The notes under the pieces are model-generated. The model was not told where the DNA came from. It did no database searches and was given only the letters and a program-made list of their open reading frames with translations. A stretch of DNA of 42,303 nt from Chloroflexota bacterium (lineage in GTDB: Bacteria > Chloroflexota > Limnocylindria > Limnocylindrales > Limnocylindraceae). The position numbers were made by a program, and so were the translations under genes. This document shows, in pieces, positions 18,682 through 41,622 of this stretch. The stretch's first letter is position 1; every line of letters starts with the position of its first letter. The stretch covers positions 1 to 42,303 of the forward strand of contig JBEDBF010000001.1 in assembly GCA_041177405.1 (NCBI GenBank), in the 5' to 3' direction.

Positions 18682-19025
18682 GCGCGGGCCTCCGTCGCGG
18701 ATGTTGTGAGAAGCTTCCCTCTGCGAAGACACTCGGTGAGTGCTGCGCGAAGTTGCGCGCTAGATGCCACGCTCGCTGGCGCGCGAACGCCGATCAAGAG
18801 ATCGGTGCCAGGCTTCACCGATGGCGCAAGGTCGCGTGCAATAGCCTTGAGGCGACGGCGAATGCGGTTGCGCACAACAGCGCCACCAATCTTTTTACCT
18901 GCCGCAATCCCAATGCGCAGTGTGGGGTCGCTTGTTTCGCGCACAACAAAGCGGATACCGAGAAGCGGCGAGTTAACGCCGGGCGCGGCGGCAAGTGCCG
19001 TAAAGTCAGCTGCGGTTCGAATCAT
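18678..19025 (-). CDS. rnpA: RNase P protein component
   Basis: Position between rpmH and yidD. Basic RNR motif KKIGGAVVRNRIRRRLK. Confidence 0.88.
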   Translation of the reverse strand: MIRTAADFTALAAAPGVNSPLLGIRFVVRETSDPTLRIGIAAGKKIGGAVVRNRIRRRLKAIARDLAPSVKPGTDLLIGVRAPASVASSAQLRAALTECLRRGKLLTTSATEARA

Positions 19026-19060
19026 GTCGAAACCTGCGGGGCGCGAGTGCGCCGACCCGC

Positions 19061-19195
19061 TCAGACGGTGAGGCGCTTGCGGCCGCGGGCGCGGCGGCGA
19101 GCCAAGACCTTGCGGCCTGACGTCGTCGACATGCGCTTACGGAAACCGTGTTCGCGGAATCGCTGTCGCTTCTTTGGCTGGTGCGTTCGCTTCAT
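19061..19195 (-). CDS. rpmH: 50S ribosomal protein L34 (below the ORF-track length cutoff)
   Basis: The reverse complement translates to [44 protein letters not shown] followed by a stop. Confidence 0.95.
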
Positions 19196-19555
19196 GTTGA
19201 TCGCTCCCGTCAGAGTGGCCTTGGTGTCGCTCCGCCGTGCGGACCGGGTACCAAGAGGGCTGCCTGGCCCAGAGCCGCGAGGTGGGCGGATCTAGGAAGG
19301 GAAGTATCGTTGGGGAGCCGCCAGGGTGTCAATTCAGGCGTGGTTGGCCTTGCGAAGGGGGCGCAACGCGGGACGGACTCGTCTCCGGAACCCCTCGCCC
19401 CCCGCTGGAAAATGTATGTAACAAAGCCCGCGCGACGCGTCGTACGGGTTGGAGAGTTGCTGCTATTCTCCGCCTCCCCCCAACAGGGTCCGGGCGGCCA
19501 ACACGCTGCCCCGCCGACTCTCTGACGCGGGGAATAGAGAGGGAGGCGCTGCGGC

Positions 19556-20986
19556 ATGGATCGACGACAGGTCTGGCGCGCCACACTCGGAGAGCTAGAG
19601 ATCAGCCTCTCTCAGGCGACCTTCGAAACCTGGTTCCGTCGAACCGCACTCCTTCGCGTTGACGAAGGGAGCAGCACCTTCACCCTCGGAGTTGCGTCGG
19701 GTTTCGCGAAAGATTGGATTGAAGAGCGCTATCGCTCACTGATCGCACAGACGATCGCAAAGATCGTTGGCTACAGCGTCACACTTCAAGTTGAAGTTGT
19801 CAGCGAAGAAGAACTTGACGCGCATGGCGCGCCCGTTGGAAAGAAGAACGCGTCGGCTTACAGCGCATCGCCGTCCCGAACCGCTGCGTCAGCAGGTGAC
19901 GCGGTGCGTGTTGTTGATACAAGTGAGCCAACACGCCCAACAAACTTGAATGCGCGATACACCTTCGCAACATACGTGGTCGGTTCCGCAAGTCGACTTG
20001 CACACGCTGCGTCGCAATCGGTTTCGGAGCGCCCGGGTGGCGCATACAACCCACTCTTCCTCTACGGCGGGACCGGGTTGGGGAAGACACACCTTCTGCA
20101 CGCAATCGGAAATGCGGTGATGGAGCGCTCGCCGAAGCGACGCGTCCTCTACATCACCGGTGAAGCCTTTACCAATGAGTTCATCCTTGGCATTCAGCAA
20201 GGGGCCGCCGATGCGTTCCGATCGCGTTTCAGAAAGATTGATGTTCTTCTGATTGACGACATCCAGTTCATTGCGGATAAGGAGCGAACGCAAGAAGAGT
20301 TCTTCCATACGTTCAACACGCTCCACTCCGCAGGGAAACAGATTGTGATCACATCAGACAGAACACCGAAGGAGATTTCGCTTCTTGAAGAGCGGTTGCG
20401 CTCGCGGTTTGAGTGGGGCTTGATTGCCGATATCTCTTCGCCCGACCTTGAAACGCGAATCGCCATTCTGCGCAGCAAGGTTGAAGAGAGCGGCGTGATC
20501 GTTGCAGATGATGTGTTGGAGCAGGTCGCCCGCCGCGTGCAGAGCAATGTGCGCGAACTCGAGGGTGCGCTGACGCGTCTCGTTGCAGTGGGGCGCCTGA
20601 GTGGTATGCCCGTCACGATGGAGCTTGCGGCGCGTGTCTTGAGCGAGGCGGTATACCCAAGCCCGAAGCGCATCCTTGAACCAGAGCAGGTGGTCGCCGT
20701 CGTTGCAGAGCATTACGGGATGACCGTTGAACAGCTCCGCGGACCGAAGCGCGACCGCGAGATTGTGGTTCCGCGGCAGATCGCCGCCTACCTCTCGCGT
20801 GAGGAGACCGACGCATCGCTGGTTCGCATCGGTGGGGCCCTCGGGGGGCGTGATCACTCGACCATCATCCACGCCTGCGGCAAGATCGAGCGCGAGATGA
20901 GCTACGACGCGGAGTTGCGCCGCGAGGTGGCCCTCCTACGAGAGGCCCTCCTCCGGCACGGCCAGGGGGCTGCCGCCTCTTCATAG
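19556..20986 (+). CDS. dnaA: Chromosomal replication initiator DnaA
   Basis: NPLFLYGGTGLGKTHLLHAIGN, VLLIDDIQF, SNVRELEGAL, C-terminal DNA-binding domain IAAYLSRE ... GRDHSTIIHACGKIE. Confidence 0.96.
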   Translation: MDRRQVWRATLGELEISLSQATFETWFRRTALLRVDEGSSTFTLGVASGFAKDWIEERYRSLIAQTIAKIVGYSVTLQVEVVSEEELDAHGAPVGKKNASAYSASPSRTAASAGDAVRVVDTSEPTRPTNLNARYTFATYVVGSASRLAHAASQSVSERPGGAYNPLFLYGGTGLGKTHLLHAIGNAVMERSPKRRVLYITGEAFTNEFILGIQQGAADAFRSRFRKIDVLLIDDIQFIADKERTQEEFFHTFNTLHSAGKQIVITSDRTPKEISLLEERLRSRFEWGLIADISSPDLETRIAILRSKVEESGVIVADDVLEQVARRVQSNVRELEGALTRLVAVGRLSGMPVTMELAARVLSEAVYPSPKRILEPEQVVAVVAEHYGMTVEQLRGPKRDREIVVPRQIAAYLSREETDASLVRIGGALGGRDHSTIIHACGKIEREMSYDAELRREVALLREALLRHGQGAAASS

Positions 20987-23624: not shown

Positions 23625-23964
23625 GAGGCGTGAACGGAAAGGGAAACCACAGAAGCTGAGCGCGCTGATCCCTGAGGCGGCGCGGGCGCTCGGGTATGAG
23701 GAGGAGCTTGAGCTCTCGCGGCGTGCGCGTGTCTTTCAGGAGCTTCTCAATCAAATCGCACCGCACCTCGCGCCGCACTGTCGCCTCACTGGAGGCGAGA
23801 GTGGCCGTCTCATCATTGAGGTTGATGATCGTGCAACTGCACAAGAGCTCCACCTGCGCAGCGCAGAGATCGCGGGCGCGTACTCGAGCCACCCCAGCGG
23901 GATGCGCGCGATCGGCCTGACCGTGCGCCTTGGACGAAGCGGCGACGATACCGAGCGGCACTAG
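23617..23964 (+). CDS. DUF721-domain protein (the family that includes the DciA helicase-loading factor)
   Basis: A small ORF overlapping the recF stop by 8 nt, in the conserved recF-DUF721 position. The pattern LSALIPEAARALG ... GRLIIEVDDRATAQELHL fits DUF721 as I remember it. Confidence 0.7.
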   Translation: MVERRERKGKPQKLSALIPEAARALGYEEELELSRRARVFQELLNQIAPHLAPHCRLTGGESGRLIIEVDDRATAQELHLRSAEIAGAYSSHPSGMRAIGLTVRLGRSGDDTERH

Positions 23965-23980
23965 GCGTATCCTCTGCAGA

Positions 23981-26464
23981 ATGAACGAAGGACGCAGAAC
24001 AACAAACGCGACAACCAACGCGCAGCCAACCCTACTCATCGGCTCGTCGACACTCGTCGCAGCAGGAGATTGCGCACTCCTCCTCCGCATGCCAACAAGC
24101 CCGACCACCGCTCGCACGCTCGGCGCGCGAGCGATACTCCTCTCAGCACCCGAAGCGAGCGCATCGCAGCGTAAGGCAGCAGCGGAACGAGCCCTCAACC
24201 TCTTTGACCAAGGAGACGGGAGTGCCGGTGAGCGCGCGCGCAACGTGATCGTCACCCTCCGCGAGCAGTTGGGTGAGCGCAGCGAGTTCTGCATGGTCGG
24301 CCTCCTTCGCCGCGAGGCGTGGGCCGCATCAAGCGGGAGCATTACCGCAGTGGCCTCACTGCTTCGTGAGAGCCGACACGTCACCGTGCTGCTCCCCAGC
24401 GGCGCACCAGGTGCGACATCCAAAACCGCACAACGACAAGGAGTGATCACCGGGCGCGTGGCGCTCGCCACAGGGGACCGCATCGCCTTGGCTGTTAGCG
24501 AGGAAGAGGCACGAGCGCTGCTAAAGCGTCGTCCAGGTGCGATGGGCGACACCCCGCAACTTGAACTTCTGCTTGCAAATGAAGAGCCCACACCGCCACC
24601 GTCGCGTACCGTCGCACGTACGAGCGACACGCTGTTGACTATCCCGGCAGACAACATCGCGCAGGCGAAAGCACGCGCACGCGCACGATGGGAAGAGGGG
24701 AACGACGAGCGAAGCGAGTTGATCGCCGCCGCCGTGCCACCAAAACCAGAGGGGGATCGCCGCCGCCCTGAAAGCCCAACCGAGCCGTACACGCCGATCG
24801 ATCGAGCGGCACAGGCGGTGCTCGCAGAGCGCCGCGGAGGGGGTCCGCGCGGGGGAGTGCCAACCCGCGGCCCAGTTGAGCCCGCTGCCCAACCGAGTCG
24901 CGAGGCAAGAAGCCGCGAAGCGGTTCGACGCGCGGCGCAAGCACGCGCAGAGCGCAGCCCTGGCGCTGAACCAGCAATCGAGCGATCGCGAGCCGAACGC
25001 GGCGCGCGCCCACTCTCGCCGCTGCAGGTTGCAACCAGACGCCTCGCCAACGCGGCAGAGCGGCGCTTCCCGTGGCTCGCGTCACGAGTGCCGGCCCCAA
25101 GCCTTGATGTCGAACGCAAGCGCGACACCTCACCAGAGAAGGCGATCGTCCGCGGCCGTCGACGCAGCGCCACCGTGCTGCTTGTTGCCATCCTCATCAC
25201 GGCAACCGGCGGAGTGGCAAGTGTGTACCTCAACCGCTCTGACCCAACACTCGACGCGGTGGCGAATGCCCGTGAGGCACTTGCGGAGGCGAGCCGAGCG
25301 GTTGAAGAGGCGCTAAACCCAGTCACCAATTTGTTGGCAAGCGATCCGGAGCGCGCGCGAACACTCCTTGTGGGCGCGACAGAGAAGCTCATCACCGCTG
25401 AAAATGGCGGAGCGTCGCAGACGGAGATCAGCGCGCTGCGTGAAAGAATGGAACCAGCGCTCGACAAACTCTTCCTCCTCACTCGTGCCCCAGTGTTTGA
25501 TGTGTTTGACTTCAGCTCCGCAACGGTGCCAATTAACATCACGGCAATCACGCAAGGCCCAGACGGATATAGCTATATCCTTGATGACTATTCTGGTGCG
25601 GTCTATCGAGTGGATCCAGCCGCCCAGCCAAATCCGCGCGCCACTGTTGTCTATCAACCTGGATATGAACTGTTTGGTAGCACCACAGGGCGCGCACAAA
25701 CGATCACCGCATCAGGACCAGACATCCTGATCTTTGACACATCATCAAACTTGTGGCGCTGGCGACCCGCTGATTTGAGCGGAAAAGGAACGCTTGTCAA
25801 GTTACGTGTTCGAGACGGTGAGCTCTGGGGGAACGACGTAAAGATCATTTCTGGGTTCGCTGCAGATGAGGGGACAGGGCTGTATCGAATCTATGTGGTC
25901 GATCCATCTGCGCGTCAGATTCTGCGCTACACACCGGCCCCCGACGGGACGGGATACCCCGCTGCACCGACCGGATACTTGATCAATCCTGCGTCGCTCA
26001 CCAACGTTGACGCAATGGCAATTGATGGAGACCTCTACCTTGCGCAAGGTGGGGCCGTCCAACGATACGTCGGCGGCTCCGTTGACGAGTGGGCTCCCGC
26101 AGATCCTGGGGACAGTGTGATCCGTCGCGCTCCCGAGATTCGCCTCATCATGTCGGCCGGCGCGAGACGGACGGGCGTTCTATACGGTTGGGACACGCGC
26201 AACCAACGGATGCTTGCGTATAGCAAGGGCGCGTCTGGGAGCGTGCTTGCGCAGTATCAACTCGTGGCGAGCGACGGCGTCGTTGCAGACATCGTTGGGG
26301 GCTACATCGCGCTTGCTCGAGACGGTGGAGCCCCAACGTTTATCTGGGCCGAATCGGGTCGGATTAGAGGTGCGGTGCTCGGCTCGCCGATCACTCCTGG
26401 TGCGAGCCCAACGCCGGTTCCTACCGCCGTTCCCGTGATCGAGTTGCCAAGCTCCCAGCCGTAG
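23981..26464 (+). CDS. Hypothetical single-pass membrane protein: cytoplasmic globular domain, Arg/Pro/Glu-rich disordered region, TM helix, repeat-rich (beta-propeller-like) outer domain
   Basis: Long ORF with protein-like composition. TM helix ATVLLVAILITATGGVASVYL at 25169-25231. The C-terminal half shows recurring strand motifs (AVYRVDP, LWRWRP, ILRYTP, VQRYVG, MLAYSK). I prefer ATG 23981 (17 nt after the DUF721 stop) over TTG 23930. Confidence 0.75.
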   Translation: MNEGRRTTNATTNAQPTLLIGSSTLVAAGDCALLLRMPTSPTTARTLGARAILLSAPEASASQRKAAAERALNLFDQGDGSAGERARNVIVTLREQLGERSEFCMVGLLRREAWAASSGSITAVASLLRESRHVTVLLPSGAPGATSKTAQRQGVITGRVALATGDRIALAVSEEEARALLKRRPGAMGDTPQLELLLANEEPTPPPSRTVARTSDTLLTIPADNIAQAKARARARWEEGNDERSELIAAAVPPKPEGDRRRPESPTEPYTPIDRAAQAVLAERRGGGPRGGVPTRGPVEPAAQPSREARSREAVRRAAQARAERSPGAEPAIERSRAERGARPLSPLQVATRRLANAAERRFPWLASRVPAPSLDVERKRDTSPEKAIVRGRRRSATVLLVAILITATGGVASVYLNRSDPTLDAVANAREALAEASRAVEEALNPVTNLLASDPERARTLLVGATEKLITAENGGASQTEISALRERMEPALDKLFLLTRAPVFDVFDFSSATVPINITAITQGPDGYSYILDDYSGAVYRVDPAAQPNPRATVVYQPGYELFGSTTGRAQTITASGPDILIFDTSSNLWRWRPADLSGKGTLVKLRVRDGELWGNDVKIISGFAADEGTGLYRIYVVDPSARQILRYTPAPDGTGYPAAPTGYLINPASLTNVDAMAIDGDLYLAQGGAVQRYVGGSVDEWAPADPGDSVIRRAPEIRLIMSAGARRTGVLYGWDTRNQRMLAYSKGASGSVLAQYQLVASDGVVADIVGGYIALARDGGAPTFIWAESGRIRGAVLGSPITPGASPTPVPTAVPVIELPSSQP

Positions 26465-27801: not shown

Positions 27802-30800
27802 ATGAGCACTTCGCTGATCATCGCTTTGGCCGTCGCGCTGCGCATGATCATCGCATACGTGCTCCTGCCGGCAGACGCTGGATTCACAGCAGACCTAGAA
27901 GCATTTCGATTCTGGGCGGCCGACCTTGGCGCGAACGGCCCACTGGGCTCATATGAGCGCGGCTACTTTCTGGACTATCTCCCAGGCTATCTCTGGATTC
28001 TCTGGCCACTCGGCGCACTAAGCGGCGCGCTAACCGGATCCTTCGATCCAGGCGCACTGATCAAGCTTCCAGGGATTCTCGCTGACGGCTTGCTCATCCT
28101 CGTGACGGTTCGGTTGGCGAGCGAGCTTGGTGCATCAACGCGCGCGCAGCGCGTGGTGGCACTTCTGCTCGCGTTCACTCCAGTCGTCTGGCTGAACTCA
28201 GCGGTATGGGGACAAGTTGACGCCGTTGGAACGAGCGCCCTCATCGTTGCGGTGACCGAGCTGATCAAGGGGCGCACGCTCCGCGGTGCCGCTCTTGCAG
28301 CACTCGCCGCGGTGATCAAGCCGCAGTTCGGCATCCTGATTCCACTGATCGCCGTGATCGCCGTTGTGCGTGCGCGGCGCAGTGGCGACGCCTGGTCGCT
28401 CCCGCTGGTCGCGCTTACCGGGACGGCGGTCGTCTCAGTTATCGCACTGCCGTTCGGGCTTACCGTCATCGACGTGATTCAGCGGGTTGGGACGGCGGCG
28501 GCAACATATCCATACCTGAGCGTGAACGCGTGGAATCTCTGGGCACTCGCTGATAGCGGTGGGACAGGCATCATCCTGAACGGCGGCTGGGGGAGCGACA
28601 CGGTCCCGCTCTTTGGGTTCGGCCCACCGGCACTCTTTGTCGGCACACTGTTGCTCGTGGCGGCGATCGCCGTGGCAGGGTGGGCGGCGAGACACGACGA
28701 ACGCACCAGAACGGTCGCCGCACTCGCACTGATCGCGATCGCCTTCTTTCTTCTCCCAACCCGCGTGCACGAGCGCTACCTCTTCCCCGCCGTCCCTCTC
28801 ACCCTTGCGCTTGCGGCAGCGCACCCTCGCTGGCGAATCGTTGCGGCGCTCACCGCCCTCGTGCTGATCATCAACACATGGGGCGTGCTCACCCTTGAGT
28901 ACCTCCAAAGCCCAGGGATTCCAGATCTCGGCCCAATCACCGACGCGCTTCACAGCCCAACCGCGATCATCACCGCCGTTTGCGCAACCACCGTTGCATT
29001 TGCTGTCGCCGGCCATCAACTCCTGCAACTGCCGACGGGTGAATCAAGAGTGGTTCGACGAAGGGCAGCACCCGTTCGGGTGATTGACGAAACGAACAGT
29101 TCCAGCGCTGCACCACGGGCACGCCTCACTCGCGTGGACCTCTGGATGCTCGCCGTTATTGCGGTAACCGCACTCTCGCTGCGTGGATGGCGTGTGGGAG
29201 AGCCAACACGATTCCACTTTGATGAGGTCTACCATGTGCGCACAGCAACCGAGTTCATGCAGCACTGGCGATATGGCGAGCCGCATGCAATCTACGAATA
29301 CACACACCCGCACCTCGCAAAGTACGCGATTGCCGGCGGACTCGAGCTCTTCGGTGCACCACGTGTTGATGGTGGGGGTACGTACGGCGCACCGATCCTG
29401 GCCATTGCATCGCGTCAGGAAGGCGCACAGGGGGCGCCGCGCATCTGGGTTGCGACAGCTGCGGGGATCGATGTCATCAGCTCCGAAACCCGCGCAATCA
29501 TCGCTCGCATTGACGAGCCCGGCGTTCGTGCACTCAGCGTTGCGGGTGACGGATCACTCTGGGGTATCTCAGCGCGCGGAGAGGTGCTTCACGCGCCTGG
29601 CGACGCAGTCGAGGGAGCAGAGAACAACCCGCTCACACGATGGGACATCAGCGTGCCAACCATTCACACGGTGCGCGGTGCTGGTGACGTTGCGTTCGTA
29701 GCCACAACGAGTGAGGTGCTACGCGTAGAGCGCGGTGCGGTTACGGCGCGAGCCGACGTCGATGGTGTGCACGCCATCGAAACCGTACGTGTTGACGAGA
29801 CGAGCCACCTAATCGTCGCTGGAAGTACCGGACTCACGCTGCTGAAAGCGGATGACCTGAGTGGCGCGCAACGCACCGCCGTGACCGGCGGCGTGGTTGC
29901 CATTGGGGTGATTGACTGGTTTGACGAACCGCGCGTCTATGCGGCGGGGAGAGACGAGATCACCGCCTTCACGCTTCGATCAGACACAGAAGCCTCACGC
30001 GTGGCATCGATCAGTATCTCTGGAGCCTCAGCAATCATTGTCAACAACGCAACAAGAGTTGTGCACGCCGTGGCACCAACACGCGCAGCGAGTAGCGGCG
30101 CGGCGCTCTGGAGTATTGAGCCGAACGGAAACGCCTATTTTGCAGACACTGAACTTCGCAACCCAGAGTCGCAGAACCCCGAGCCACTCATGAGCAGTGC
30201 GGTGGTGGGAGCCGTGATCGATGGCTCGGCGGAACTGCCAGACGGTGGACGCGGAGAGTTGATCACCGCTTGGCCCAACGGCGAGATGGTGCAGGTTGCT
30301 GTGGGCGACCTCTCTTCGGGGTGGCGCTGGCCAGGGGTAATCGCGGGAGCCGCCGCTGCGGCACTCCTCGCACTCCTTGCGCGACTACTAACGGAGCGCC
30401 GCGATGTTGCGGCGCTCACCGGTCTCCTCGCGCTGCTTGATGGCGCGGGGTTCGTACAGAGCCGCATCGGGATGAACGACGCCTTCCTGCTCGCGGCGCT
30501 TCTCGCCGCCGCATGTGCGTTTGTTGCGTGGGCTCAAGGTCGAGCGCGCGGAGCCGCAGGGGGAAGCCTCCTCCTCCTTGCCGCCGGTTCCGCGCTCGGC
30601 TTGGCACTCGCAAGCAAGTGGGTGGCGCTCTACGGGATCGGCGCACTCGGGCTGATCTGGCTCGCACGCAGCGCGTGGGGGCGAGCCCTCGCCGTTGTGG
30701 GCCTTATCGGAATCGGCGCGCTCCTCCTCCCCTCCGCACTCTCCGTTCCCGCCGACGGGGGACGCCTCCCCAATCTTCCCTTCCTCGCGGTTGTGACCCT

Positions 30801-31965
30801 CGTCACCGCCGTCGCCGTCGTGGTTACCCGCCGAGCGCGAGACGACAGTCGTGCCTTATTCGATCTGCAGCGTGTGAGTGATGCGGTCGCGTCCGGCGCA
30901 TCAGCACTCCTGGTCGGCGCAACACTTATTGCACTCCCGCTTGCGGTGTATCTCATCAGTTATCTCCCGTGGGCAGCGCTAGGCAATCAAATTGTTGAAG
31001 GGTGGCCGCCTGGCAACGACGGGAGAACGCTCGCCGACCTCACCACCTCCATGTACCAGTACCACGACACGCTTCGCGTCGCGCACGCCGCAAGCTCGCC
31101 GTGGTGGGCGTGGCCGTTTGACCTGAAGCCGGTCTGGTTCTTCCAGGAGAGCTTTGCGGCAATCGGCGGATGGAGCGGTGCAATCTACAACGGAGGAAAC
31201 GTGGCTTCGCGCGTCCTCGGCCTCGCCGCTGGCGCATGGCTTGTTCGCCAAGCCTGGACGCAGAAGAGCTGGGGCCTCGCAAGCATCGCGGTGCTCTTCT
31301 TTGCACTCTGGCTACCATGGGCACGCGTAGATCGCGCGGCATTTCAGTACCACTACTTCCCGTCGTCACAGATTGCGTTGATCGCGCTTGCACTCCTCCT
31401 TGCAGATCTTCGAAACGGAGCGACGCGTGCCGTTCGCATGGCACAACTTGGATTCGCCGCACTCATTCTGGCCGCACCACTTCTCTGGGCGACAACCCCG
31501 CTTCTATGCGCAGCCGCTGGAGTTCTTGACGTTTACCCTGAGAGCCACGTCTGTCTCTCTTCTGGGCTTGCAACACCAGGCCCGGTCGTTGGTGCGCTGC
31601 TCTTGATCCCCGCCGGATATGCGGCCTGGTCGCTACGCCATATCAGCGATCCGCGACGCCTCTTCCGCTGGTTGATCGCCACAATCGGACTCGTTGCGCT
31701 GATCTGGTATCCGAACTGGTCAGCACTCCCCTTGCCAACCGGAGTACACAACGCGTACCAGGGCCTTCTCCCAACGTGGACGTGGTCGTTCCAGTTCGGC
31801 GTGACACTCGAGAAGCCAGTTGACGTCCCGCTCGTGAGTGGAGCAACGTTTCTCTTTGCCGCGGCTCTCGCAGCAGTTGCGCTCCTTACGTATGCGTTAC
31901 TCGAGTACGCGCGGCGACGAGAACTCCACGAGGATCGCGCGAAGCGGAACTCCATCGGTCGCTAG
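27802..31965 (+). CDS. Giant polytopic GT-C glycosyltransferase: N-terminal GT-C module fused to a PMT (GT39)-like protein O-mannosyltransferase module with a large loop insertion
   Basis: The first ~430 aa form a multi-TM module with DLEAFRFWA ... FLDYLPGY (an ALG6/8- or DUF2029-like look). The PMT loop-1 signature RFHFDEVYH ... EYTHPHLAKY sits at 29209-29325. Further motifs are GFVQSRIGMNDAF and C-terminal SSPWWAWPFDLKPVWFF, plus many TM helices. Confidence 0.8.
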   Translation: MSTSLIIALAVALRMIIAYVLLPADAGFTADLEAFRFWAADLGANGPLGSYERGYFLDYLPGYLWILWPLGALSGALTGSFDPGALIKLPGILADGLLILVTVRLASELGASTRAQRVVALLLAFTPVVWLNSAVWGQVDAVGTSALIVAVTELIKGRTLRGAALAALAAVIKPQFGILIPLIAVIAVVRARRSGDAWSLPLVALTGTAVVSVIALPFGLTVIDVIQRVGTAAATYPYLSVNAWNLWALADSGGTGIILNGGWGSDTVPLFGFGPPALFVGTLLLVAAIAVAGWAARHDERTRTVAALALIAIAFFLLPTRVHERYLFPAVPLTLALAAAHPRWRIVAALTALVLIINTWGVLTLEYLQSPGIPDLGPITDALHSPTAIITAVCATTVAFAVAGHQLLQLPTGESRVVRRRAAPVRVIDETNSSSAAPRARLTRVDLWMLAVIAVTALSLRGWRVGEPTRFHFDEVYHVRTATEFMQHWRYGEPHAIYEYTHPHLAKYAIAGGLELFGAPRVDGGGTYGAPILAIASRQEGAQGAPRIWVATAAGIDVISSETRAIIARIDEPGVRALSVAGDGSLWGISARGEVLHAPGDAVEGAENNPLTRWDISVPTIHTVRGAGDVAFVATTSEVLRVERGAVTARADVDGVHAIETVRVDETSHLIVAGSTGLTLLKADDLSGAQRTAVTGGVVAIGVIDWFDEPRVYAAGRDEITAFTLRSDTEASRVASISISGASAIIVNNATRVVHAVAPTRAASSGAALWSIEPNGNAYFADTELRNPESQNPEPLMSSAVVGAVIDGSAELPDGGRGELITAWPNGEMVQVAVGDLSSGWRWPGVIAGAAAAALLALLARLLTERRDVAALTGLLALLDGAGFVQSRIGMNDAFLLAALLAAACAFVAWAQGRARGAAGGSLLLLAAGSALGLALASKWVALYGIGALGLIWLARSAWGRALAVVGLIGIGALLLPSALSVPADGGRLPNLPFLAVVTLVTAVAVVVTRRARDDSRALFDLQRVSDAVASGASALLVGATLIALPLAVYLISYLPWAALGNQIVEGWPPGNDGRTLADLTTSMYQYHDTLRVAHAASSPWWAWPFDLKPVWFFQESFAAIGGWSGAIYNGGNVASRVLGLAAGAWLVRQAWTQKSWGLASIAVLFFALWLPWARVDRAAFQYHYFPSSQIALIALALLLADLRNGATRAVRMAQLGFAALILAAPLLWATTPLLCAAAGVLDVYPESHVCLSSGLATPGPVVGALLLIPAGYAAWSLRHISDPRRLFRWLIATIGLVALIWYPNWSALPLPTGVHNAYQGLLPTWTWSFQFGVTLEKPVDVPLVSGATFLFAAALAAVALLTYALLEYARRRELHEDRAKRNSIGR

Positions 31966-34153: not shown

Positions 34154-35332
34154 ATGGAAGAATCGCTCGCCGCGCGTATCGTTGCGGAGATCCGCGAGCG
34201 AGGACCAATCAGTTTTGCGCGATTCATGGAGCGCGCACTCACTGAGCCAGGTATCGGCTACTACGTTGGCCCGCATGCACGCGCAGGGCGAGAGGGTGAC
34301 TTCATTACCGCACCAGAGATGCACGGGATTCTCGGTTCAGCACTTGCACGGCTGTTTACCCAAACATGGGAGCGGCTCGATCGACCAACACCGTTTCGCT
34401 ATACCGAGTACGGCGCCGGATCTGGCACACTCGTCTGCGCCATCATCGATCAGCTCATCAGAGATACATCACCACTCCTTGAGGCGCTTGAGATCCAACT
34501 GATTGAAGTCAATGAACACCGCGTAGAAGAGTTGAAAGCTGCGGTGAGCGCACGTGCGCTCCGTCAGCCGCTGAACATCGTGCACGTTGATGCACCCCCG
34601 GTGGCGGGAGTTGTTGTGGCGAACGAATATCTCGACGCACTCCCGTTTCACATCTATGTGGGACGAGCAGCGACCGCCTGCGGCGTTGCAGAGCGTCGTG
34701 TTGGAGTCAACGAGCGCGGCGTACTTGATTGGGTGGAAGTGCCGCTGGACGAATCCGAAGCTGAGCGAGTGCGTCAGCGGTTTGGGGCACCACTCGCTGA
34801 AGGGCAACGCGCAGAGGCCTGCTTTGCTGCAGACAGATGGCCGTCCGAACTGGCGCAACGAATCAGTCATGGGCTTGTGGTGGTGATTGACTACGGCCGC
34901 GAAGGGGTTGAACTGCGTGACGCTGCGAGCCGCGCGGCCGGGACGGCACTTGCCTATCAGGGGCATCGGGCCACGGACGACCTCTTGGGGGACCCAGGGG
35001 GGCGCGACCTGACCGCCCACGTTGACTTGACCGCCCTGCGAGTCGCCGCCACCGCGGCGGGGCTCACCCCGATCGCCTCCACCAGCCAGGCGGCACTCCT
35101 CGCAGGGGCGGGCCTTGATGACGAAATCGAGCGGATCCGCCGAGGGCCAGAGGCGACCCTTGAGGGGGCGATCGCCCTTCGCGCGGCGCTTGCACGGCTG
35201 ATGAACCCCCGGAGCATGGGTGGCTTTGCCGTTGAGCTCTTCGCCCTCGGCTCGGCTGAGCACATTTCACGCCTCTCAGATGCGAGAAATCCGCTCCCTG
35301 GAGCGGCGGCTCCGATCCGCCCCCTCGTCTAG
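34154..35332 (+). CDS. Class I SAM-dependent methyltransferase of the DUF185 / MidA / NDUFAF7 family
   Basis: ISFARFMERALTEPGIGYY, GDFITAPEMHGILGSALA, EYGAGSGTL, ANEYLDALP, DLTAHVDLTAL match the family pattern. Confidence 0.8.
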   Translation: MEESLAARIVAEIRERGPISFARFMERALTEPGIGYYVGPHARAGREGDFITAPEMHGILGSALARLFTQTWERLDRPTPFRYTEYGAGSGTLVCAIIDQLIRDTSPLLEALEIQLIEVNEHRVEELKAAVSARALRQPLNIVHVDAPPVAGVVVANEYLDALPFHIYVGRAATACGVAERRVGVNERGVLDWVEVPLDESEAERVRQRFGAPLAEGQRAEACFAADRWPSELAQRISHGLVVVIDYGREGVELRDAASRAAGTALAYQGHRATDDLLGDPGGRDLTAHVDLTALRVAATAAGLTPIASTSQAALLAGAGLDDEIERIRRGPEATLEGAIALRAALARLMNPRSMGGFAVELFALGSAEHISRLSDARNPLPGAAAPIRPLV

Positions 35333-35404: not shown

Positions 35405-35761
35405 ATGAACGGACTCTGGTACGTCCTCGGCTTCGCCGGCGCGGGTGTCTCCTTCGTCTTTTTGACGATCGGGATCGCCTGGCTGATCTCCCACCGTACG
35501 CGCGGAAGCCGAGGGAAGCAGGTGCCATACGAGTCGGGCATCGACACGTACGGCGACACCCACGGCCGCTTCGGCCTCTCCTTCTATCTCTACGCACTTC
35601 TCTTCGTTGCGTTCGATGTTGAGATCGTCTTTATTTACATCTGGGCGCTCAACTTCCAAACGCTCCTCATCGAAGGCCTCGTCTCCATGGCGGTCTTTAT
35701 CGGCGTCTTGCTGATCGGGCTCGCATATGCGTGGCGAAAAGGGGTGCTCGCATGGCGATGA
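35405..35761 (+). CDS. nuoA: NADH-quinone oxidoreductase subunit A
   Basis: 3-TM protein with YESGID ... [19 protein letters not shown]. Confidence 0.9.
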
Positions 35762-36429
35762 CACGCGATCCAAAGAAGGCGTTGCAGGCTCCGATCGTCA
35801 CACCGAACACGCTCTGGACCACCGACGACCCGCGTGCATACGGTGGTCAGCCGCTCGCCGAACATCCGAACCTTGAGCTCGCGCGCTATGACGCCACTGG
35901 CGAAGGTCGCGTGGATGATGCGCGTTGGAGCGGAGCGCTTGGCGCGATCCCAACAAAGGCAGACATTGTGCTCGACCTAATCCGAGCAAACAGCCTCTGG
36001 CCACTTCTCTCCGGACTCGCATGTTGCGCGATCGAGATGATGTCAACCGCGACGCCAAAGAACGATATTGATCGCTGGGGGATGTTCCCCTTCCGCGCGT
36101 CGCCGCGACAGGCAGACGTGTTGATCGTCGCGGGAACACTGACAACAAAAATGGCGGAACCGCTCATTCGACTATGGGAGCAGATGCCAGAACCGAAGTG
36201 GGTTGTTGCAATGGGAGACTGCACCTGTTCAGGCGGTCGCTATAAGCGCAGCTACTCCGTGGTGCAAGGGATTGACCGCGTGATGCCCGTTGATGTCTAC
36301 ATCCCAGGATGTCCGCCACGACCAGAGGGCCTGATCTACGGAATGATGAAACTGCAGCAGCTGATTAAGGATCGTCGTGGACATTGGCCGGAGCGCGCAA
36401 TCGGCCCAACCGTTCCGGACGGAATCTAA
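35752..36429 (+). CDS. nuoB: NADH-quinone oxidoreductase subunit B (all four N2 cluster Cys present) with a long N-terminal extension
   Basis: [45 protein letters not shown]. The start is ATG 35752 or 35758, overlapping the nuoA stop. Confidence 0.9.
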
Positions 36430-36980
36430 TGGATCGCGCGCTCGCCACTGCACTCCAGGAGCGCTTCGGCAACACGCTTCTCGCCCCCGTTCGTCAACGA
36501 TTTGACGAGACGGAGATTCGCGTCAGCATTGCTGATGCAATCCCAACGCTGCGCGCGCTACATGATGAACCTGCATTCGCATATGAAATGCTGATTGACC
36601 TTTGTGGGGTAGATACCGGTGAAGAGATGCAGGTCGTGTATCACCTTTCGTCGTCTCAAAGTGGTGACTGGCTTCGCGTGATCGTCCCCGGTATTGACCG
36701 AAGTGCGCCGCGCGTGAACTCGCTCGTCTCACTCTGGCCAGGCGCCGAATGGATGGAGCGCGAGGCCTACGACATGTTCGGCATCATCTTCGAAGGGAAT
36801 CGCGACCTTCGTCGCATCTACATGCCAGATGATTATGTGAGCCACCCGCTCCGAAAAGATTTCTATCTTGCAGACGACGCGTCGCGGTCACCGGCCGCTG
36901 GCGTTCGCAACATGGAGCGCGTGGGAACGCCCGTTGATGCCACCCGCAGCACGGCACTACGCAAGAGTCCAGGGGCATAA
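36429..36980 (+). CDS. nuoC: NADH-quinone oxidoreductase subunit C
   Basis: LIDLCGVD, SLWPGAEWMEREAYDMFGIIFEGN, DLRRI, HPLRKDF. ATG overlaps the nuoB TAA (TAATG). Confidence 0.9.
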   Translation: MDRALATALQERFGNTLLAPVRQRFDETEIRVSIADAIPTLRALHDEPAFAYEMLIDLCGVDTGEEMQVVYHLSSSQSGDWLRVIVPGIDRSAPRVNSLVSLWPGAEWMEREAYDMFGIIFEGNRDLRRIYMPDDYVSHPLRKDFYLADDASRSPAAGVRNMERVGTPVDATRSTALRKSPGA

Positions 36981-36982
36981 GC

Positions 36983-38197
36983 GTGACCACACCCCTGACG
37001 AAACCATCACTTGACGATCCAAGGATTGCGATCCCCGCTGCCTCCGAGTGGTACGAGCCCGCACCCACGGCGCAGACGGAGCGACAGGCGGAGTTCCTGA
37101 ACCTTCGCGACGGCGAGATGTTCATCAATATGGGGCCGCAACACCCGTCCACACACGGGGTGCTTCGCATCGTCGTCAAGGTGAACGGCGAGCAGGTTGT
37201 TGACCTTGACCCCGTGCTCGGATACCTCCACCGCGGCGTAGAGAAGCTCTGCGAGAACGCCGACTACCACCAGGCGATCTGCTACACCGACCCACTCGAA
37301 TACGTGGCCTCGCTCTTCTGCGAAGCCGCACCCGTGGCCGCCTTCGAGAAGCTGATGGATGTCGACGTCCCGCGCCGCGCGCAGTACATCCGCGTCCTCA
37401 CCATGGAGCTGAATCGCATCGCCAGTCACACCCTCTTCCAGGGGTGGATGGCGCTCGATCTTGGTGGGATCACGCCGATCCTCTGGTCGTTCATTGAACG
37501 CGATGAGATCGTGGACATGCTCGCGGCTCTCACGGGGCAGAAACTGCTCTACAACTACTACCGCATTGGTGGCGTGAACGGCGACCTCAATCACGAATTC
37601 ATGAGCCGACTCGGCAACTGGATGAGCCGCGCCGCCGCGCAGATCGATTCAAACCTTGGGTTGATGAACGAGAACGAAATCTTCGTTCGACGCACGCGCG
37701 GTCTCGGCACGCTTGATGCGGCTACTGCGCTGCGCATGGGTGTCACTGGACCAAACCTGCGCGCCACCGGCGTGCCGTTTGATCTCCGCCGCGATCACCC
37801 ATATCTGGTGTATCCAGAGCTTGAGTTCAACGTGCCAACACGCCAAGAGGGTGACTCGCTTGCGCGCTACATGGTTCGGATTGACGAGATTCGCGAGTCC
37901 ATTCGCATCATTGATCAGGTGCTGCACGAAATGCCAGATGGTCCAGTGATGGCGAAACTCCCGCGCCTGATCCGACCACGACCAGGCCGCGCATTCGGCG
38001 CGGTAGAAGGGCCGCGTGGCGCGTACGGCGTGTACGCAATCTCTGATGGCACCGATCAACCGTTCCGGATGCGCATTCACGACCCATCGTTCGTTCACTT
38101 GCAACTGGTGGGTCCGCTCACGCGCGGCAATTTGATTGCAGACACCATGGCGGTGATGGCAAGCCTTGATCCTGTCATGGGTGGGGTGGACAAGTGA
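36983..38197 (+). CDS. nuoD: NADH-quinone oxidoreductase subunit D
   Basis: NMGPQHPSTHGVLR, LGYLHRGVEKL, ELNRIASH, EGPRGAYGVY, HDPSF, DPVMGGVDK. Confidence 0.93.
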   Translation: MTTPLTKPSLDDPRIAIPAASEWYEPAPTAQTERQAEFLNLRDGEMFINMGPQHPSTHGVLRIVVKVNGEQVVDLDPVLGYLHRGVEKLCENADYHQAICYTDPLEYVASLFCEAAPVAAFEKLMDVDVPRRAQYIRVLTMELNRIASHTLFQGWMALDLGGITPILWSFIERDEIVDMLAALTGQKLLYNYYRIGGVNGDLNHEFMSRLGNWMSRAAAQIDSNLGLMNENEIFVRRTRGLGTLDAATALRMGVTGPNLRATGVPFDLRRDHPYLVYPELEFNVPTRQEGDSLARYMVRIDEIRESIRIIDQVLHEMPDGPVMAKLPRLIRPRPGRAFGAVEGPRGAYGVYAISDGTDQPFRMRIHDPSFVHLQLVGPLTRGNLIADTMAVMASLDPVMGGVDK

Positions 38198-39531
38198 GCG
38201 GCGCACAGATGGCATGGTCACGAATGACGCCAGGCGGACGCGCACTCGCCGTGCTGCTGCCACTTCTCTCCGTTGGGGGCGCGGCGATCACCGCCCTGCT
38301 CGTTGTAGCGGGACCGTTCATTGGCGCAACCATTGGGGCAAACCTGCCAATCGTGCGCTTCCTCGCCGCGTCGGTGATCACCTTCTTGATCACCGTCCCT
38401 GTTGCATTCCTTTTGATTTACATGGAGATGAAGATCATTGCGTTGATGAATCTGCGCATCGGCCCAGATCGCATCGGTCCCGGCGGTGCCGTCATGAGTG
38501 TGGTGCACGGGCTCAAGGTGCTGATGAAGGAGGACTACACGCCGCCGAGCGTTGATGTTCCTGTCTTCACGCTCGCACCCGTCGTTGTCTATCTGGCGAG
38601 CTTCATGACGATCATGGTCATTCCGTTTGCGCCAGACCTCACGAGTATCGGACTCGAGTTCGGCCTCCTCTACTTCTTCGCTATCGGCGGACTCGGCGTA
38701 GTGGGCTTGATGATGGCGGGCTGGTCCTCGTTCAACAAGTATTCGCTTTTGGGCGGCATTCGAGCCGCAGCGCAGGCGATCAGCTATGAGATCCCCCTGA
38801 CACTCTCCGTCGTAGGAATCATCATCTTGACCGGCACACTCTCGCTCCCAAAGATTGTGGAGGCGCAGAGCGGTTCCCTGCTTGACTGGTTCATCTTCCG
38901 TCAGCCACTTGCGGCGATCATCTTCTTCATTGCAATCACCGCAGAGGCGAACCGCACGCCGTTTGATAACACCGAAGCCGATCAGGAGATCGTTGCCGGA
39001 TTCGCAACGGAGTACTCCGGCATGCGCTTCGGCTTCTTCTTCTTTGCGGAGTACGTCAACGTCTTCATCGTCTCAGCACTCTTCTCCGCCGTCTTCCTTG
39101 GCGGATCCAATGCACCGCTTGTTCTCCCCTTCAACCCTGAGATCAATGTGGACCTGAGCGGGCTCGGCCTCCTCCTCCCGATCGCGGCGGGGATCGCTCC
39201 GCTGCTTGGGACGTTGGCGATCGGCCTCCCCATCTACGCGATTAGCGCGCGCATCAAGGCCTGGCAGGCACTCCTCGCCGGCTTCCTCATCTTCGGCGCG
39301 CTTTCGACAGCGGCCATCGGCTTCTGGGCCTGGGCGATGCTTCCACCCGTCGCGGACCTTGTCTGGTTCCTGCTGAAGACGTTCACCCTGATCTTCATCT
39401 TCGTCTGGATGCGCGCAACGTTGCCGCGCGCGCGCATCGACCAGCTGATGGGCTTCGCCTGGAAGTGGCTCCTCCCCGCCTCACTGCTCAACCTATTTGT
39501 CACGGCTGCCGCCGTGTTGCTGACGGCATAA
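38194..39531 (+). CDS. nuoH: NADH-quinone oxidoreductase subunit H, about 100 aa longer than usual
   Basis: EMKIIALMNLRIGPDRIGPGG, LKVLMKEDYTP, AEANRTPFD, EADQEIVAGFATEYSGMRFGFFFFAEY, WMRATLPRARIDQLM. GTG 38194 overlaps the nuoD stop. Confidence 0.9.
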   Translation: MSGAQMAWSRMTPGGRALAVLLPLLSVGGAAITALLVVAGPFIGATIGANLPIVRFLAASVITFLITVPVAFLLIYMEMKIIALMNLRIGPDRIGPGGAVMSVVHGLKVLMKEDYTPPSVDVPVFTLAPVVVYLASFMTIMVIPFAPDLTSIGLEFGLLYFFAIGGLGVVGLMMAGWSSFNKYSLLGGIRAAAQAISYEIPLTLSVVGIIILTGTLSLPKIVEAQSGSLLDWFIFRQPLAAIIFFIAITAEANRTPFDNTEADQEIVAGFATEYSGMRFGFFFFAEYVNVFIVSALFSAVFLGGSNAPLVLPFNPEINVDLSGLGLLLPIAAGIAPLLGTLAIGLPIYAISARIKAWQALLAGFLIFGALSTAAIGFWAWAMLPPVADLVWFLLKTFTLIFIFVWMRATLPRARIDQLMGFAWKWLLPASLLNLFVTAAAVLLTA

Positions 39532-39541
39532 GGAGGGTCTG

Positions 39542-40363
39542 ATGGCACGAATCCCAGGCTCAGGCATCGTCCGCGGAATGGCCCTGACGCTCACGCGCTT
39601 CTTCCAGCCGAAGAAGACGGTGATGTACCCCGAAGTGAAGCCAGACATTCCGCCGCGCAACCGTGGTCGCTTGGAACTGGTGACCGACGAGCGTGGCACG
39701 CTGAAGTGCGAAACCTGTTTCCAGTGCGCGCAGGCGTGCCCAATTGAGTGCATTGACATGGGCGGAACAGATACCAAGGGAAGGTACGCCGTCCACTGGG
39801 GGCCGGCGGAGCAGTACGCCGAGCGCCGCGAAGAGTCGGCGATGCGTCGCTCCGGACGAACCGTCTCCGACGCTGCGGCAGCACAAGAGAGCAGTGTTGA
39901 CCTTCGACCCGTTGAAGCGGCGTTGGAACGCGTTGACTACGACCCGCATCACATGTTGCAGATCCTTGAGTCAGTACAGCGCGCGTACGGATATCTGCCG
40001 GTTGATGCATTGAAGCGCATCAGTCGCGCCACTGGCGCCTGGTACGCCATGGTCTATGGCACCGCAACCTTCTATAAACACCTCACGTTTGAGCCGGGAC
40101 GCAATCGCACGATCGCGGTCTGCCGTTGTGCAAACTGCTTGGTTGCCGGCGCAGGGCGCGTGATCAACACGCTCTCGTTCGAATTTGGAACAGAGTTCGG
40201 ACAGGCGATCCCGTGGAGCAACCTGCGGCTCGAAGCCCTCCCAACACACCTTCCTGACGCCCCATCGCCGCTCGTGGTGATTGACGGCGAACCACAGCGC
40301 GAGCTCTCAAGTCGCAATGCCGAGTCGTGGGCCGCCGCGCTTGCGGGGAGGTACGCCGCGTGA
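39542..40363 (+). CDS. nuoI: Fusion protein: N-terminal half of NuoI (single 4Fe-4S motif) joined to a NuoE-like thioredoxin-fold domain with an incomplete 2Fe-2S ligand set
   Basis: NuoI part: KKTVMYPE, RNRGRLEL, CETCFQCAQACPIEC (39707-39751). NuoE-like part: LQILESVQRAYGYLP, VYGTATFY, IAVCRCANC (40121-40138). SD AGGAGGG precedes ATG 39542. Confidence 0.8.
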   Translation: MARIPGSGIVRGMALTLTRFFQPKKTVMYPEVKPDIPPRNRGRLELVTDERGTLKCETCFQCAQACPIECIDMGGTDTKGRYAVHWGPAEQYAERREESAMRRSGRTVSDAAAAQESSVDLRPVEAALERVDYDPHHMLQILESVQRAYGYLPVDALKRISRATGAWYAMVYGTATFYKHLTFEPGRNRTIAVCRCANCLVAGAGRVINTLSFEFGTEFGQAIPWSNLRLEALPTHLPDAPSPLVVIDGEPQRELSSRNAESWAAALAGRYAA

Positions 40364-41622
40364 AGCAACTGAGCGCACCAAAGGGATGGTCACAGATCCT
40401 CATGACGCCACCGGCAACGCCGTGGAGCGCGCTGCGCGCTGCGCTCGCCGCTGGTGGCGCGGCAACCGCGCAGACACTCATTGATGCCGGCCTGCGCGGA
40501 CGCGGCGGTGGGGGTTTCTTGACCGGTGAGAAGTGGCGTGCAGCTGCGCAGAGCGACGCGTCGCCGAAATACGCGGTGGCAAACGCATACGAGTCAGACC
40601 CAGCCGTCTTCACGAACCGTCTCCTTCTTGAAAAGAATGCACTCGGAGTCATTGAGGGCCTCGCGATCGCCGCACTCAGTGTTGGCGCGCGTGAAGCGAT
40701 GATTGGCGTGCGCGCGGAGTACAGCGACGCAATCCGTTCGCTTGAAGTGACCATCACCACCGCAGAGCGCGAAGGCGTTCTCGGGGCCAACGTGCTCGGA
40801 AGCGGTCGCGAGCTCACCGTGCGCGTCATCCCACTTCAAGGCTCAAGCATGATCGGTGAAGAGACGGTGCTGCTCAAGGCGCTTGCAGGAAAACGCGGTC
40901 AGCCAGAGCAGACGCCGCCGTATCCATCGGAAGTTGGCTATCTCGGCAAGCCGACCGTGGTGAACAACGTGGCAACACTCGCCGCCGTCTCTTGGATCCT
41001 TGCCAACGGCGCCGCTGCATTCAAGCAGATTGGCGACCCAGCGCAGCCTGGAACCATGCTCGTTCAGGTGAGCGGCTCGATCACTAACTCCGGCGTCCTC
41101 GAAGTTCCGACAGGAACCCCACTCGCGGAGATCCTCGCAGTGGCGGGAGGCCCCGCACGCGGAGCCACGATCAAGGCGCTTCTTGTTGGCGGCCCATCGG
41201 GCGGATTTGTTCCTGCGCAGCTGTTGGCAAGTACGCCGTATAGCGGCGCCGGACTCGCCGCGGTTGGCGCGCACATTGGTTCGGGCGCGCTGCTTGCCCT
41301 CGACGGGAGCGCATCAATTCCTGAGCTCGCCGCCATGTTGACGCGCTGGTGTGCCGACGAAGCCTGCGGAAAAACAATTCCATGCCGCATCGGCACCCGT
41401 CGCCTTGCTGAGATTGGGCAACGCTTTGTCGACGGTCTCGCTGGCCCGCAAGACGGCGAGCGACTCCAGGCGCTCGCGGCAGATGTTGCAGATAGCGCGC
41501 TCTGCGCGCATGAGCGGCTCACGCCAAGCCCACTCCTGACGGGGATGCGATACTTCAAACACGAGTTTTATCCGGCCAACGTCGCGCAGCCAAGCGGCGC
41601 AGTAGCAGGACGGAGTACGTAG
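40360..41622 (+). CDS. NuoF (51-kDa subunit)-like protein with divergent cofactor motifs
   Basis: GLRGRGGGGFLTGEKW, IGEETVLLKALAGKRGQP, PPYPSEVGYLGKPTVVNNVAT, EACGKTIPCRIG. GTG 40360 forms a GTGA overlap with the upstream stop. Confidence 0.8.
   Translation: MKQLSAPKGWSQILMTPPATPWSALRAALAAGGAATAQTLIDAGLRGRGGGGFLTGEKWRAAAQSDASPKYAVANAYESDPAVFTNRLLLEKNALGVIEGLAIAALSVGAREAMIGVRAEYSDAIRSLEVTITTAEREGVLGANVLGSGRELTVRVIPLQGSSMIGEETVLLKALAGKRGQPEQTPPYPSEVGYLGKPTVVNNVATLAAVSWILANGAAAFKQIGDPAQPGTMLVQVSGSITNSGVLEVPTGTPLAEILAVAGGPARGATIKALLVGGPSGGFVPAQLLASTPYSGAGLAAVGAHIGSGALLALDGSASIPELAAMLTRWCADEACGKTIPCRIGTRRLAEIGQRFVDGLAGPQDGERLQALAADVADSALCAHERLTPSPLLTGMRYFKHEFYPANVAQPSGAVAGRST

Follow-up and report, generated by a model that had tools for sequence, protein, structure and literature searches.

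A putative split NuoI and an Stn/Nfn-type input cassette in the nuo operon of Candidatus Limnocylindrus and related Chloroflexota

The canonical 14-subunit complex I has separate NuoE, NuoF, NuoG and NuoI subunits, with nuoEFG placed between nuoD and nuoH. For the 11-subunit form, the gene order nuoABCDHIJKLMN is reported (PMC3144371). In the soluble StnABC enzyme, the integration of a GltD domain into a NuoG-like protein is marked in StnC by two signatures, HxxxCxxxCxxxCP and CxxCxCxxxxC (PMC7483475). In the related NfnABC, NADPH reduces the flavin adenine dinucleotide (FAD) of NfnA, and electrons flow along clusters A7-A6-A3-A2-A1 to the B1-FMN-C1 site (FMN, flavin mononucleotide), which is the minimal bifurcation site; the low-potential route uses B3/B4 of the BfuB C-terminal domain, and A2-A4-A5 make up a lateral branch with a dead end, within a formate dehydrogenase (Fdh)-like domain (PMC11829005). 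Finally, in Mbx-like operons a gltD-related flavoprotein replaces the NuoI homologue (PMC4758237). The locus analyzed here is an open reading frame (ORF) at 39542-40363 in a 42,303-nt stretch of a Chloroflexota bacterium genome (GCA_041177405.1, contig JBEDBF010000001.1, positions 1 to 42,303, forward strand; "the window" in the following). With a probability of roughly 0.75, this ORF encodes part of a NuoI that is naturally split and belongs to a variant respiratory complex I of Candidatus (Ca.) Limnocylindrus and related Chloroflexota metagenome-assembled genomes (MAGs). Three genes, predicted from their sequences to encode an input cassette homologous to the soluble Stn/NfnABC enzymes, separate the two cysteine motifs of nuoI and are fused in frame at both junctions.

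A previous interpretation of the locus, based on inspection of the sequence only, described the ORF as a NuoI cut after its first 4Fe-4S motif and joined in frame to a NuoE-like module, and profile searches agree with both parts of this description. For residues 9-81, the match to NuoI profiles is confined to the N-terminal half of the latter: NF004536 is matched from position 13 to 86 of 180 (E 4.6e-17), and TIGR01971 from position 1 to 65 of 121, with 48.7 bits where 113.05 is the curated cutoff. The NuoI-specific N-terminal segment and the first CxxCxxCxxxCP motif are thus present, and the second such motif is missing from the polypeptide. Downstream, residues ~107-263 match PF01257 and the HoxE/NuoE profiles; PF01257 scores 67.9 bits over residues 125-259 (cutoff 24.8), while the equivalog cutoffs of NCBIfam are not reached, the best NuoE model, NF005722, giving 57.6 bits vs 141 and HoxE 66.1 vs 224. 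The positions proposed for the first ferredoxin motif and for the C-x4-C pair of the NuoE-like domain were both found to be correct (Table 1), as was the lack of any cysteine cluster in all frames between 39760 and 40120. Here the coding frame contains no cysteine at all, and the other frames show 3-6 scattered cysteines and stop codons, not forming a motif. In a six-frame scan of the whole window, the C..C..C...C motif occurs only once.

This arrangement might be taken to indicate a one-cluster NuoI stump, in which the N-terminal half binds a single [4Fe-4S] cluster through C56/C59/C62 plus C66 or C70, or as a homodimer, within a shortened cluster chain. The five cysteines in a row, the absence of a second motif anywhere in the window and the good conservation of C70 (~90%, against full invariance for C56, C59, C62 and C66 in the aligned family) are in favor of it. 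C70 is however replaced by valine or alanine in some family members and in distant fusions and, as detailed below, a second motif with the appearance of a missing NuoI half is found two genes downstream. The stump is for these reasons regarded as improbable.

The window ends at 42303 within a gene coding for a NuoG-like protein (G'), which is cut after ~227 codons, and its continuation was looked for in related genomes. In a relative showing 87% identity (L001), nuoA, B, C, D and H are followed by the fusion, by a NuoF-like gene (nuoF'), by an 855-aa G' gene and by nuoJ, K, L, M and N. The window is also collinear, to its last base, with three more relatives (L005, L007 and L009; 84-87% nucleotide identity), where G' ends with ...CILCGICVDACPYDALRSGFDFELAHTDR... 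and nuoJ follows. In collinear relatives G' is ~850 aa long, and its last ~50 structured residues, encoded directly upstream of nuoJ, correspond to the C-terminal half of NuoI. When the 97-aa tail of the L001 protein was isolated and compared with NuoI, the match had an E value of 3.5e-12, and the ten best families were all NuoI, NdhI or NDH subunit I. The split is clean, since the N-terminal half stops at profile position 65 and the tail begins at position 71.

The two halves, re-joined in silico by attaching the G' tail to residues 1-86 of the fusion, produce one continuous match to TIGR01971 (positions 1-117 of 121), scoring 99.8 bits vs 50 for the N-terminal half alone. The same operation gives 113.2 bits in the more distant lineage of L085, against the cutoff of 113.05, and 91.8 bits in a third lineage, L088, where the tail is cut by the end of the contig. 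Past the GltD domain, G' has the CxxCxxCxxxC motif three times, and in the fusion it occurs once; each of the two proteins is therefore left with one unpaired motif, and together they make a NuoI. Across 54 distinct G' sequences none of the iron-sulfur cysteines varies, C774, C777, C780 and C784 of the tail included. The unpaired and fully conserved second motif, with its NuoI-specific flank immediately before nuoJ, and the alignment of the re-joined halves as one stretch in three lineages are the main arguments against the stump. They also speak against the earlier conclusion that the NuoI half has no partner with which to work.

Taken together, the window and the collinear relatives define the operon order nuoA-B-C-D-H-[I(N)::E']-F'-[G'::I(C)]-J-K-L-M-N, in which I(N) and I(C) are the two halves of NuoI and E', F' and G' the NuoE-, NuoF- and NuoG-like parts. 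I(N) comes directly after nuoH and I(C) directly before nuoJ, with E'-F'-G' in between. The features identified in the window, and those of the complete G' of L001, are reported in Table 1.

Table 1. Coordinates of the nuo operon features in the window and domains of the complete G' protein of relative L001 (residue numbers).
Feature	Position	Strand	Remarks
NDUFAF7-like methyltransferase	34154..35332	+	Methyltransf_28, E 4.6e-44; directly upstream of nuoA
nuoA	35405..35761	+	118 aa; PF00507 on the L001 orthologue
nuoB	35731..36429	+	Start uncertain, 35731 or 35752; N2 motifs CC..E, GDC and GCPP present
nuoC	36429..36980	+	PF00329; ORF tool start TTG 36384, likelier ATG 36429 overlapping the nuoB stop
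nuoD	36983..38197	+	PF00346
nuoH	38194..39531	+	PF00146, E 7e-101; NF004741 above cutoff
I(N)::E' fusion gene	39542..40363	+	273 aa, ATG start; NuoI N-half, conserved linker, NuoE-like domain
NuoI N-terminal half	39566..39799	+	Residues ~9-86; TVMYPE, RNRGRL segment and inter-motif strand RYAVHW
Single ferredoxin motif	39707..39751	+	C56-x2-C59-x2-C62-x3-C66-P plus C70; reads CETCFQCAQACPIEC
Linker	39797..39916	+	Residues 86-125, ~40 residues; from alignment and dN/dS
NuoE/HydC/NfnC-type thioredoxin-like domain	39917..40330	+	Residues ~126-263; from PF01257, AF2 and Foldseek
First ligand pair of E'	40121..40138	+	C194-R-C196-x2-C199; canonical C194 and C199 plus extra invariant C196
Second-pair site of E'	40244..40258	+	T235-H236-L-P-D239 where canonical has Cys3-x3-Cys4; H236 invariant in family
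nuoF'	40360..41622	+	420 aa from GTG 40360; NuoF core only
F' N3/B1 residues	Cys 41365-41367, Thr 41374-41376, Cys 41383-41385, fourth Cys 41503-41505		
G', first ~227 aa	41623..42303	+	ATG right after the nuoF' stop; NuoG-type 2Fe-2S domain and start of GltD-like Fer4_20
L001 G'	residues 52-127		NuoG-type 2Fe-2S domain
L001 G'	residues 149-563		GltD-like Fer4_20 and FAD/NAD(P)H domain; NF009454, 542 bits
L001 G'	residues 692-757		NuoG-type ferredoxin domain
L001 G'	residues 762-808		NuoI, TIGR01971 positions 71-117 of 121

The fusion is widely distributed and well conserved. Over 120 full-length homologues, with lengths of 270-277 aa and identities of 57-98%, were detected by a protein search; those bearing a name are labelled Chloroflexota or Ca. 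Limnocylindrales, with the exception of one MAG labelled Saccharimonadales. In a genome collection with one representative per species, at least 576 places encode a relative of the fusion, under titles mostly referring to Limnocylindrus/Limnocylindrales or Chloroflexota. The closest relatives among the matches listed are Ca. Limnocylindrus MAGs, which assigns the window to this genus or to a near relative of it. Examination of the genomic sequences within 10 kb on either side of each match revealed that, among 83 related loci, nearly all those with enough flanking sequence keep the order H-fusion-F'-G'-J, the few exceptions being broken matches. Pairwise ratios of nonsynonymous to synonymous substitution rates (dN/dS) between the fusion and eight relatives range from 0.014 to 0.115, with the NuoI half, the linker and the NuoE domain all constrained; the fusion gene is under strong purifying selection. 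In the deepest comparisons identity is ~74% for G', ~60% for the fusion and NuoH, and ~50% for F', the fastest-evolving of the operon proteins compared.

An assembly artefact, a frameshift or a decaying pseudogene, accompanied by a canonical nuo operon elsewhere in the genome, had been indicated at the outset as possible refutations, together with the absence of the fusion from relatives. The fusion is instead found in related genomes as just described, and the same junction in the same frame recurs in numerous separate assemblies of metagenomes of different origin. Misassembly, frameshift and pseudogene were ruled out on the basis of this recurrence in independent assemblies and of the dN/dS values (~0.05). 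In addition, as already noticed in the sequence-only reading, the ORF is intact and tightly coupled to its neighbors: a GGAGG lies 5 nt past the nuoH stop, ahead of the ATG of the fusion, whose stop codon overlaps the start of nuoF' (GTGA); the TAG of nuoF' is then directly followed by the ATG of G'. The operon is moreover located ~15 kb from dnaA, among housekeeping genes. The probability left to an artefact or to decay is negligible.

The two parts of the fusion protein are connected by a conserved linker. Its first half, HWGPAExYxERREESAxRRSGR, is nearly invariant in the aligned family, and the linker is therefore not a passive spacer; dN/dS of the linker is 0.03-0.23. The objection that NuoE is normally distant from NuoI in complex I stands. 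This distance would be bridged by the linker, and the input module may be arranged unlike that of canonical complex I. AlphaFold2 (AF2) modelling of the fusion alone produced a NuoE domain with a predicted local distance difference test (pLDDT) score of ~90, while residues 20-115 only reached 30-45. Foldseek, run with this model, returned NuoE-type matches only (7p5h_C, 9bp5_C, 9n5u_C and 8oh5_A). That the NuoI half is left unplaced by the model is weakly compatible with a half-ferredoxin in need of its partner.

When compared to NuoI/Nqo9/TYKY (TIGR01971, PRK05888), in which one polypeptide supplies the eight cysteines of N6a and N6b, the fusion holds the N-terminal segment, motif 1 and the inter-motif strand, and G' holds motif 2 and the C-terminal flank; the difference is that here they belong to two polypeptides, each fused to a subunit of the input module, and that neither half by itself reaches the curated cutoff. 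Since the halves re-join as one NuoI match, the clusters N6a and N6b could be built from the two polypeptides in textbook fashion. In the proposed mechanism, the 2x[4Fe-4S] fold of NuoI would assemble with motif 1 contributed by fusion residues ~45-86 and motif 2 by the last ~50 structured residues of G', and the shared iron-sulfur domain would staple the input module to the Q-module.

For E', F' and G' alike, the best hits include subunits of C. saccharolyticus NfnABC (9bov/9bp5), S. ovata StnABC (8oh5) and T. sibiricus NfnABC (9n5u). The likeness concerns both the three-subunit set and the insertion of a GltD-like domain into a NuoG-like iron-sulfur protein, and both StnC signature motifs are present in G'. 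The latter differs from canonical NuoG in the GltD insertion and in having no Mo-type C-terminal domain. In alignments to 9bov_A and 8oh5_C, the motif of the G' tail stands where the Fdh-like domain has its first cluster motif; the replaced motif is probably that of A5. Unlike the soluble enzymes, the module is part of a nuo operon; where StnC/NfnA have their Fdh-like C-terminal domain, G' has the C-terminal half of NuoI; F' lacks the N- and C-terminal cluster domains of BfuB, and the ligand sets of B1 and C1 are both incomplete.

E' shares with NuoE, HydC, NfnC and StnA the fold, the first C-x4-C pair and a gene adjoining that of a NuoF-like partner. It differs in carrying a threonine and an aspartate (T..D) in place of the second cysteine pair of the N1a/C1 cluster, in the additional C196 and H236, and in being preceded by the NuoI half and the linker. 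The second pair had been said to be replaced by LPTHLPDAP at 40232-40264. Its absence holds, as T235 and D239 occupy the positions of the canonical Cys3 and Cys4 in alignments to HydC, NfnC and StnA chains and to distant fusions with an intact cluster; the start is two codons early, the sequence from 40232 reading EALPTHLPDAP. The four-cysteine set C-x4-C...C-x3-C is not found in any of the Limnocylindrus-type sequences aligned, in which C194, C196, C199 and H236 are invariant. A multiple alignment including related lineages reveals a graded series: the intact form (P0208, P0214), C-x-C-x2-C with both distal cysteines (P0226), C-x-C-x2-C with Cys3 alone of the distal pair (P0121, P0235), and the Limnocylindrus type, having C194/C196/C199 and an invariant histidine at Cys3+1. 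The series suggests replacement of ligands rather than simple loss, and a Cys3-His site is possible; E' may thus retain a metal site formed by C194, C196, C199 and H236.

F' aligns only to positions ~146-512 of 584-aa BfuB homologues; being confined to the NuoF core, it is devoid of the N-terminal thioredoxin-like domain and of the C-terminal B3/B4 ferredoxin domain. At the N3/B1 motif, F' has ACGKTIPC instead of the canonical CGKCxPC, so that the second cysteine is replaced by threonine and three out of four cysteines are kept. This reading, like RGQPEQ.PPYP, shows at least 90% conservation in the F' family (71 members). Retention of flavin-based bifurcation or confurcation of the Bfu type, involving ferredoxin, NAD(H), NADP(H) and quinone, could be proposed from the homology of all three subunits to StnABC/NfnABC. 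Against it, neither the complete B1-FMN-C1 flavobicluster nor the C-terminal B3/B4 ferredoxin domain of BfuB is found. With B1 and C1 both altered, B3/B4 absent and the N-terminal domain also missing, such an activity is very improbable.

The same protein is central to another explanation, which accepts the split architecture and assigns the role of main donor to NADH at the FMN of F', the GltD-like domain being an accessory entry or exit for NADPH. The enzyme would in that case work as a dual NAD(P)H:quinone oxidoreductase, or else as a transhydrogenase linked to quinone. F' conserves the FMN loop GLRGRGGxGF..KW as well as GEETVL and is under selection, not decaying, and the soluble homologues use both nucleotides (PMC7483475, PMC11829005). 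On the other hand, F' is the subunit that evolves fastest, the ligands of the E' cluster are altered and the cysteine-to-threonine change in N3/B1 is family-wide. In comparison with the canonical F of L084 and L085, NA[DE]EG[DE]PG has become N.Ye.DPA, with a conserved tyrosine in place of Asp/Glu, RG.PR.[KR]PP has become RGQPEQ.PPYP, with loss of its Lys/Arg, and the aromatic residue ahead of GEET is replaced; the substituted positions presumably line the nucleotide pocket seen in the structure of Thermus Nqo1 with NADH. A NuoF-like protein of a further lineage (L088:2811-4217) shares the tyrosine substitution in NA[DE]E and reads ACGRCIPG, with glycine for the third N3 cysteine. As a different cysteine was lost there, independently, the N3 cluster seems to have degenerated repeatedly wherever G' has a GltD domain. 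NADH as main donor through F' is, on balance, rather unlikely, and is the leading alternative to the path proposed below. Under the split-NuoI interpretation favored here, the most probable role of E' and F' would be that of a scaffold or of a second, modified site of entry.

The path envisaged for electrons leads from NADPH to the GltD-like FAD, through the clusters of G' and its NuoG-type ferredoxin domain to N6a/N6b, and from there to N2 in NuoB and to quinone; we favor this path, at even odds. The former dead-end branch of NfnABC would now lead into N6a/N6b, with the C-terminal half of NuoI at the place of its last cluster. As for its origin, the input module looks as if it was captured inside nuoI, independently of the canonical placement of nuoEFG between nuoD and nuoH. 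A more comprehensive scenario can be formulated for Limnocylindria and a few rarer lineages: insertion of an Stn/Nfn-type cassette into the nuoI of an 11-subunit enzyme would have produced a proton-pumping NADPH:quinone oxidoreductase, with N6a/N6b shared by two polypeptides, the dead-end branch of NfnA as main wire, and E'/F' as a scaffold with a re-ligated Cys3-His metal site. This full combination is tentative, and we place it somewhat below even odds.

Several points weigh against these proposals. The re-joined Limnocylindrus sequence, with 99.8 bits, remains below the curated cutoff of TIGR01971. The tail of G' in this genome is predicted from the collinear relatives, with the 84-87% nucleotide identity given above, and it is from sequence that we infer the physical pairing of the two NuoI halves. 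The assignment of NADPH, acting through the FAD of G', as the donor is likewise indirect. Given its conserved FMN loop, F' may still be an active NADH site, and a site with three cysteines can hold a cluster.

Related architectures were found in other lineages. In L085 (1321-6023), nuoH is followed by I(N)::E, by a 1048-aa protein fusing F to GltD, by a 265-aa protein composed of a short NuoG and I(C), and by nuoJKLMN; both the E domain and the N3 motif are intact. A homologue search for this short NuoG::NuoI(C) type revealed only two protein clusters carrying the tail, and this form is rare. L084 contains nuoABCDH and I(N)::E, whose E cluster is again intact. Outside any nuo operon, L086 (1804-7726) and L087 encode a soluble relative of the module; here, genes similar to those for the alpha and delta subunits of pyruvate:ferredoxin oxidoreductase (PFOR) are followed by NuoI(N)-like::NuoE, by a HydB-like protein of 634 aa and by an StnC-like protein of 1060 aa. 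The split ferredoxin therefore occurs outside complex I too. In L086, the E-like protein lacks the first ~21 positions of the NuoI profile, and the StnC-like protein looks as if it runs past the NuoI(C)-like motif into a PFOR-beta-like domain.

Among membrane-bound systems, a close one is the 11-subunit ('ancestral') complex I, as the order of its eleven genes becomes identical to that found here once the cassette is removed (PMC3144371); the difference is the covalently attached flavoprotein input module inside nuoI. The canonical 14-subunit enzyme differs in that no separate E, F, G and I exist here and the cassette is not between nuoD and nuoH. The nearest ideas in the literature are the StnC/NfnA design, with GltD inserted into a NuoG-like protein, and the Mbx-like operons. 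In the latter, too, a complex-I-like enzyme has an NAD(P)H flavoprotein of the GltD type where NuoI would be, but they are of the Mbx/Mrp type with NuoI substituted, whereas here NuoI is kept, although split, along with a full nuoA-N set and homologues of E, F and G (PMC4758237). In the limited selection of literature searched, including genome papers on Limnocylindria (PMC6169038, PMC13212565) and surveys on complex I diversity (PMC4758237, PMC3144371, bioRxiv 10.1101/2025.03.13.643058), neither a split NuoI nor an Stn-like module in a nuo operon is mentioned.

If the proposed interpretation is true, the central iron-sulfur subunit of complex I tolerates splitting and rebuilding in trans, and the 11-subunit core can gain an electron-input module otherwise than by the canonical acquisition of nuoEFG. 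The system would offer a natural experiment on whether N1a and N3 are dispensable, on the relation between Bfu-type enzymes and respiratory complex I, and on the direct use of NADPH by complex I, in organisms which are abundant freshwater and soil Chloroflexota. In public sources, the homologues of the fusion are annotated as 'NAD(P)H-dependent oxidoreductase subunit E', HndA or NuoE, and automated pipelines would consequently call nuoI missing in these genomes.

The family of the NDUFAF7-like methyltransferase encoded upstream of nuoA includes the eukaryotic complex I assembly factor NDUFAF7. Linkage of a gene of this type to an actinobacterial 11-subunit operon is reported (bioRxiv 10.1101/2021.02.01.429150).

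The first part of the window (1-23624) is occupied by a replication and housekeeping cluster, containing parA, parB, gyrB, gyrA, prs, secA, prfB, ftsX and a Ctp-type protease gene, followed by smpB (14947-15435), jag and yidC (minus strand), and then by dnaA (19556-20986), dnaN and recF; the nuo operon begins at the distance from dnaA mentioned above. ARAGORN detected no tRNA or tmRNA gene in the 42 kb, smpB being present. The ORF of prfB (release factor 2; 10753-11772), with PCRF and RF-1 domains, matches its profile starting from position 14, and CTTTGAC, which we take to be the usual programmed +1 frameshift site of this gene, is found ~45 nt upstream of it (10704-10710). Two ORFs, one of 844 aa (23930-26464) and one of 180 aa (18753-19295), the latter located between yidC and dnaA, have no Pfam match at E <= 1e-5. 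A 1387-aa ORF (27802-31965) weakly matches a protein O-mannosyltransferase model of NCBIfam; its L001 orthologue contains the Pfam domains PMT and PMT_4TMC, and is adjoined by a family 2 glycosyltransferase gene on the minus strand.

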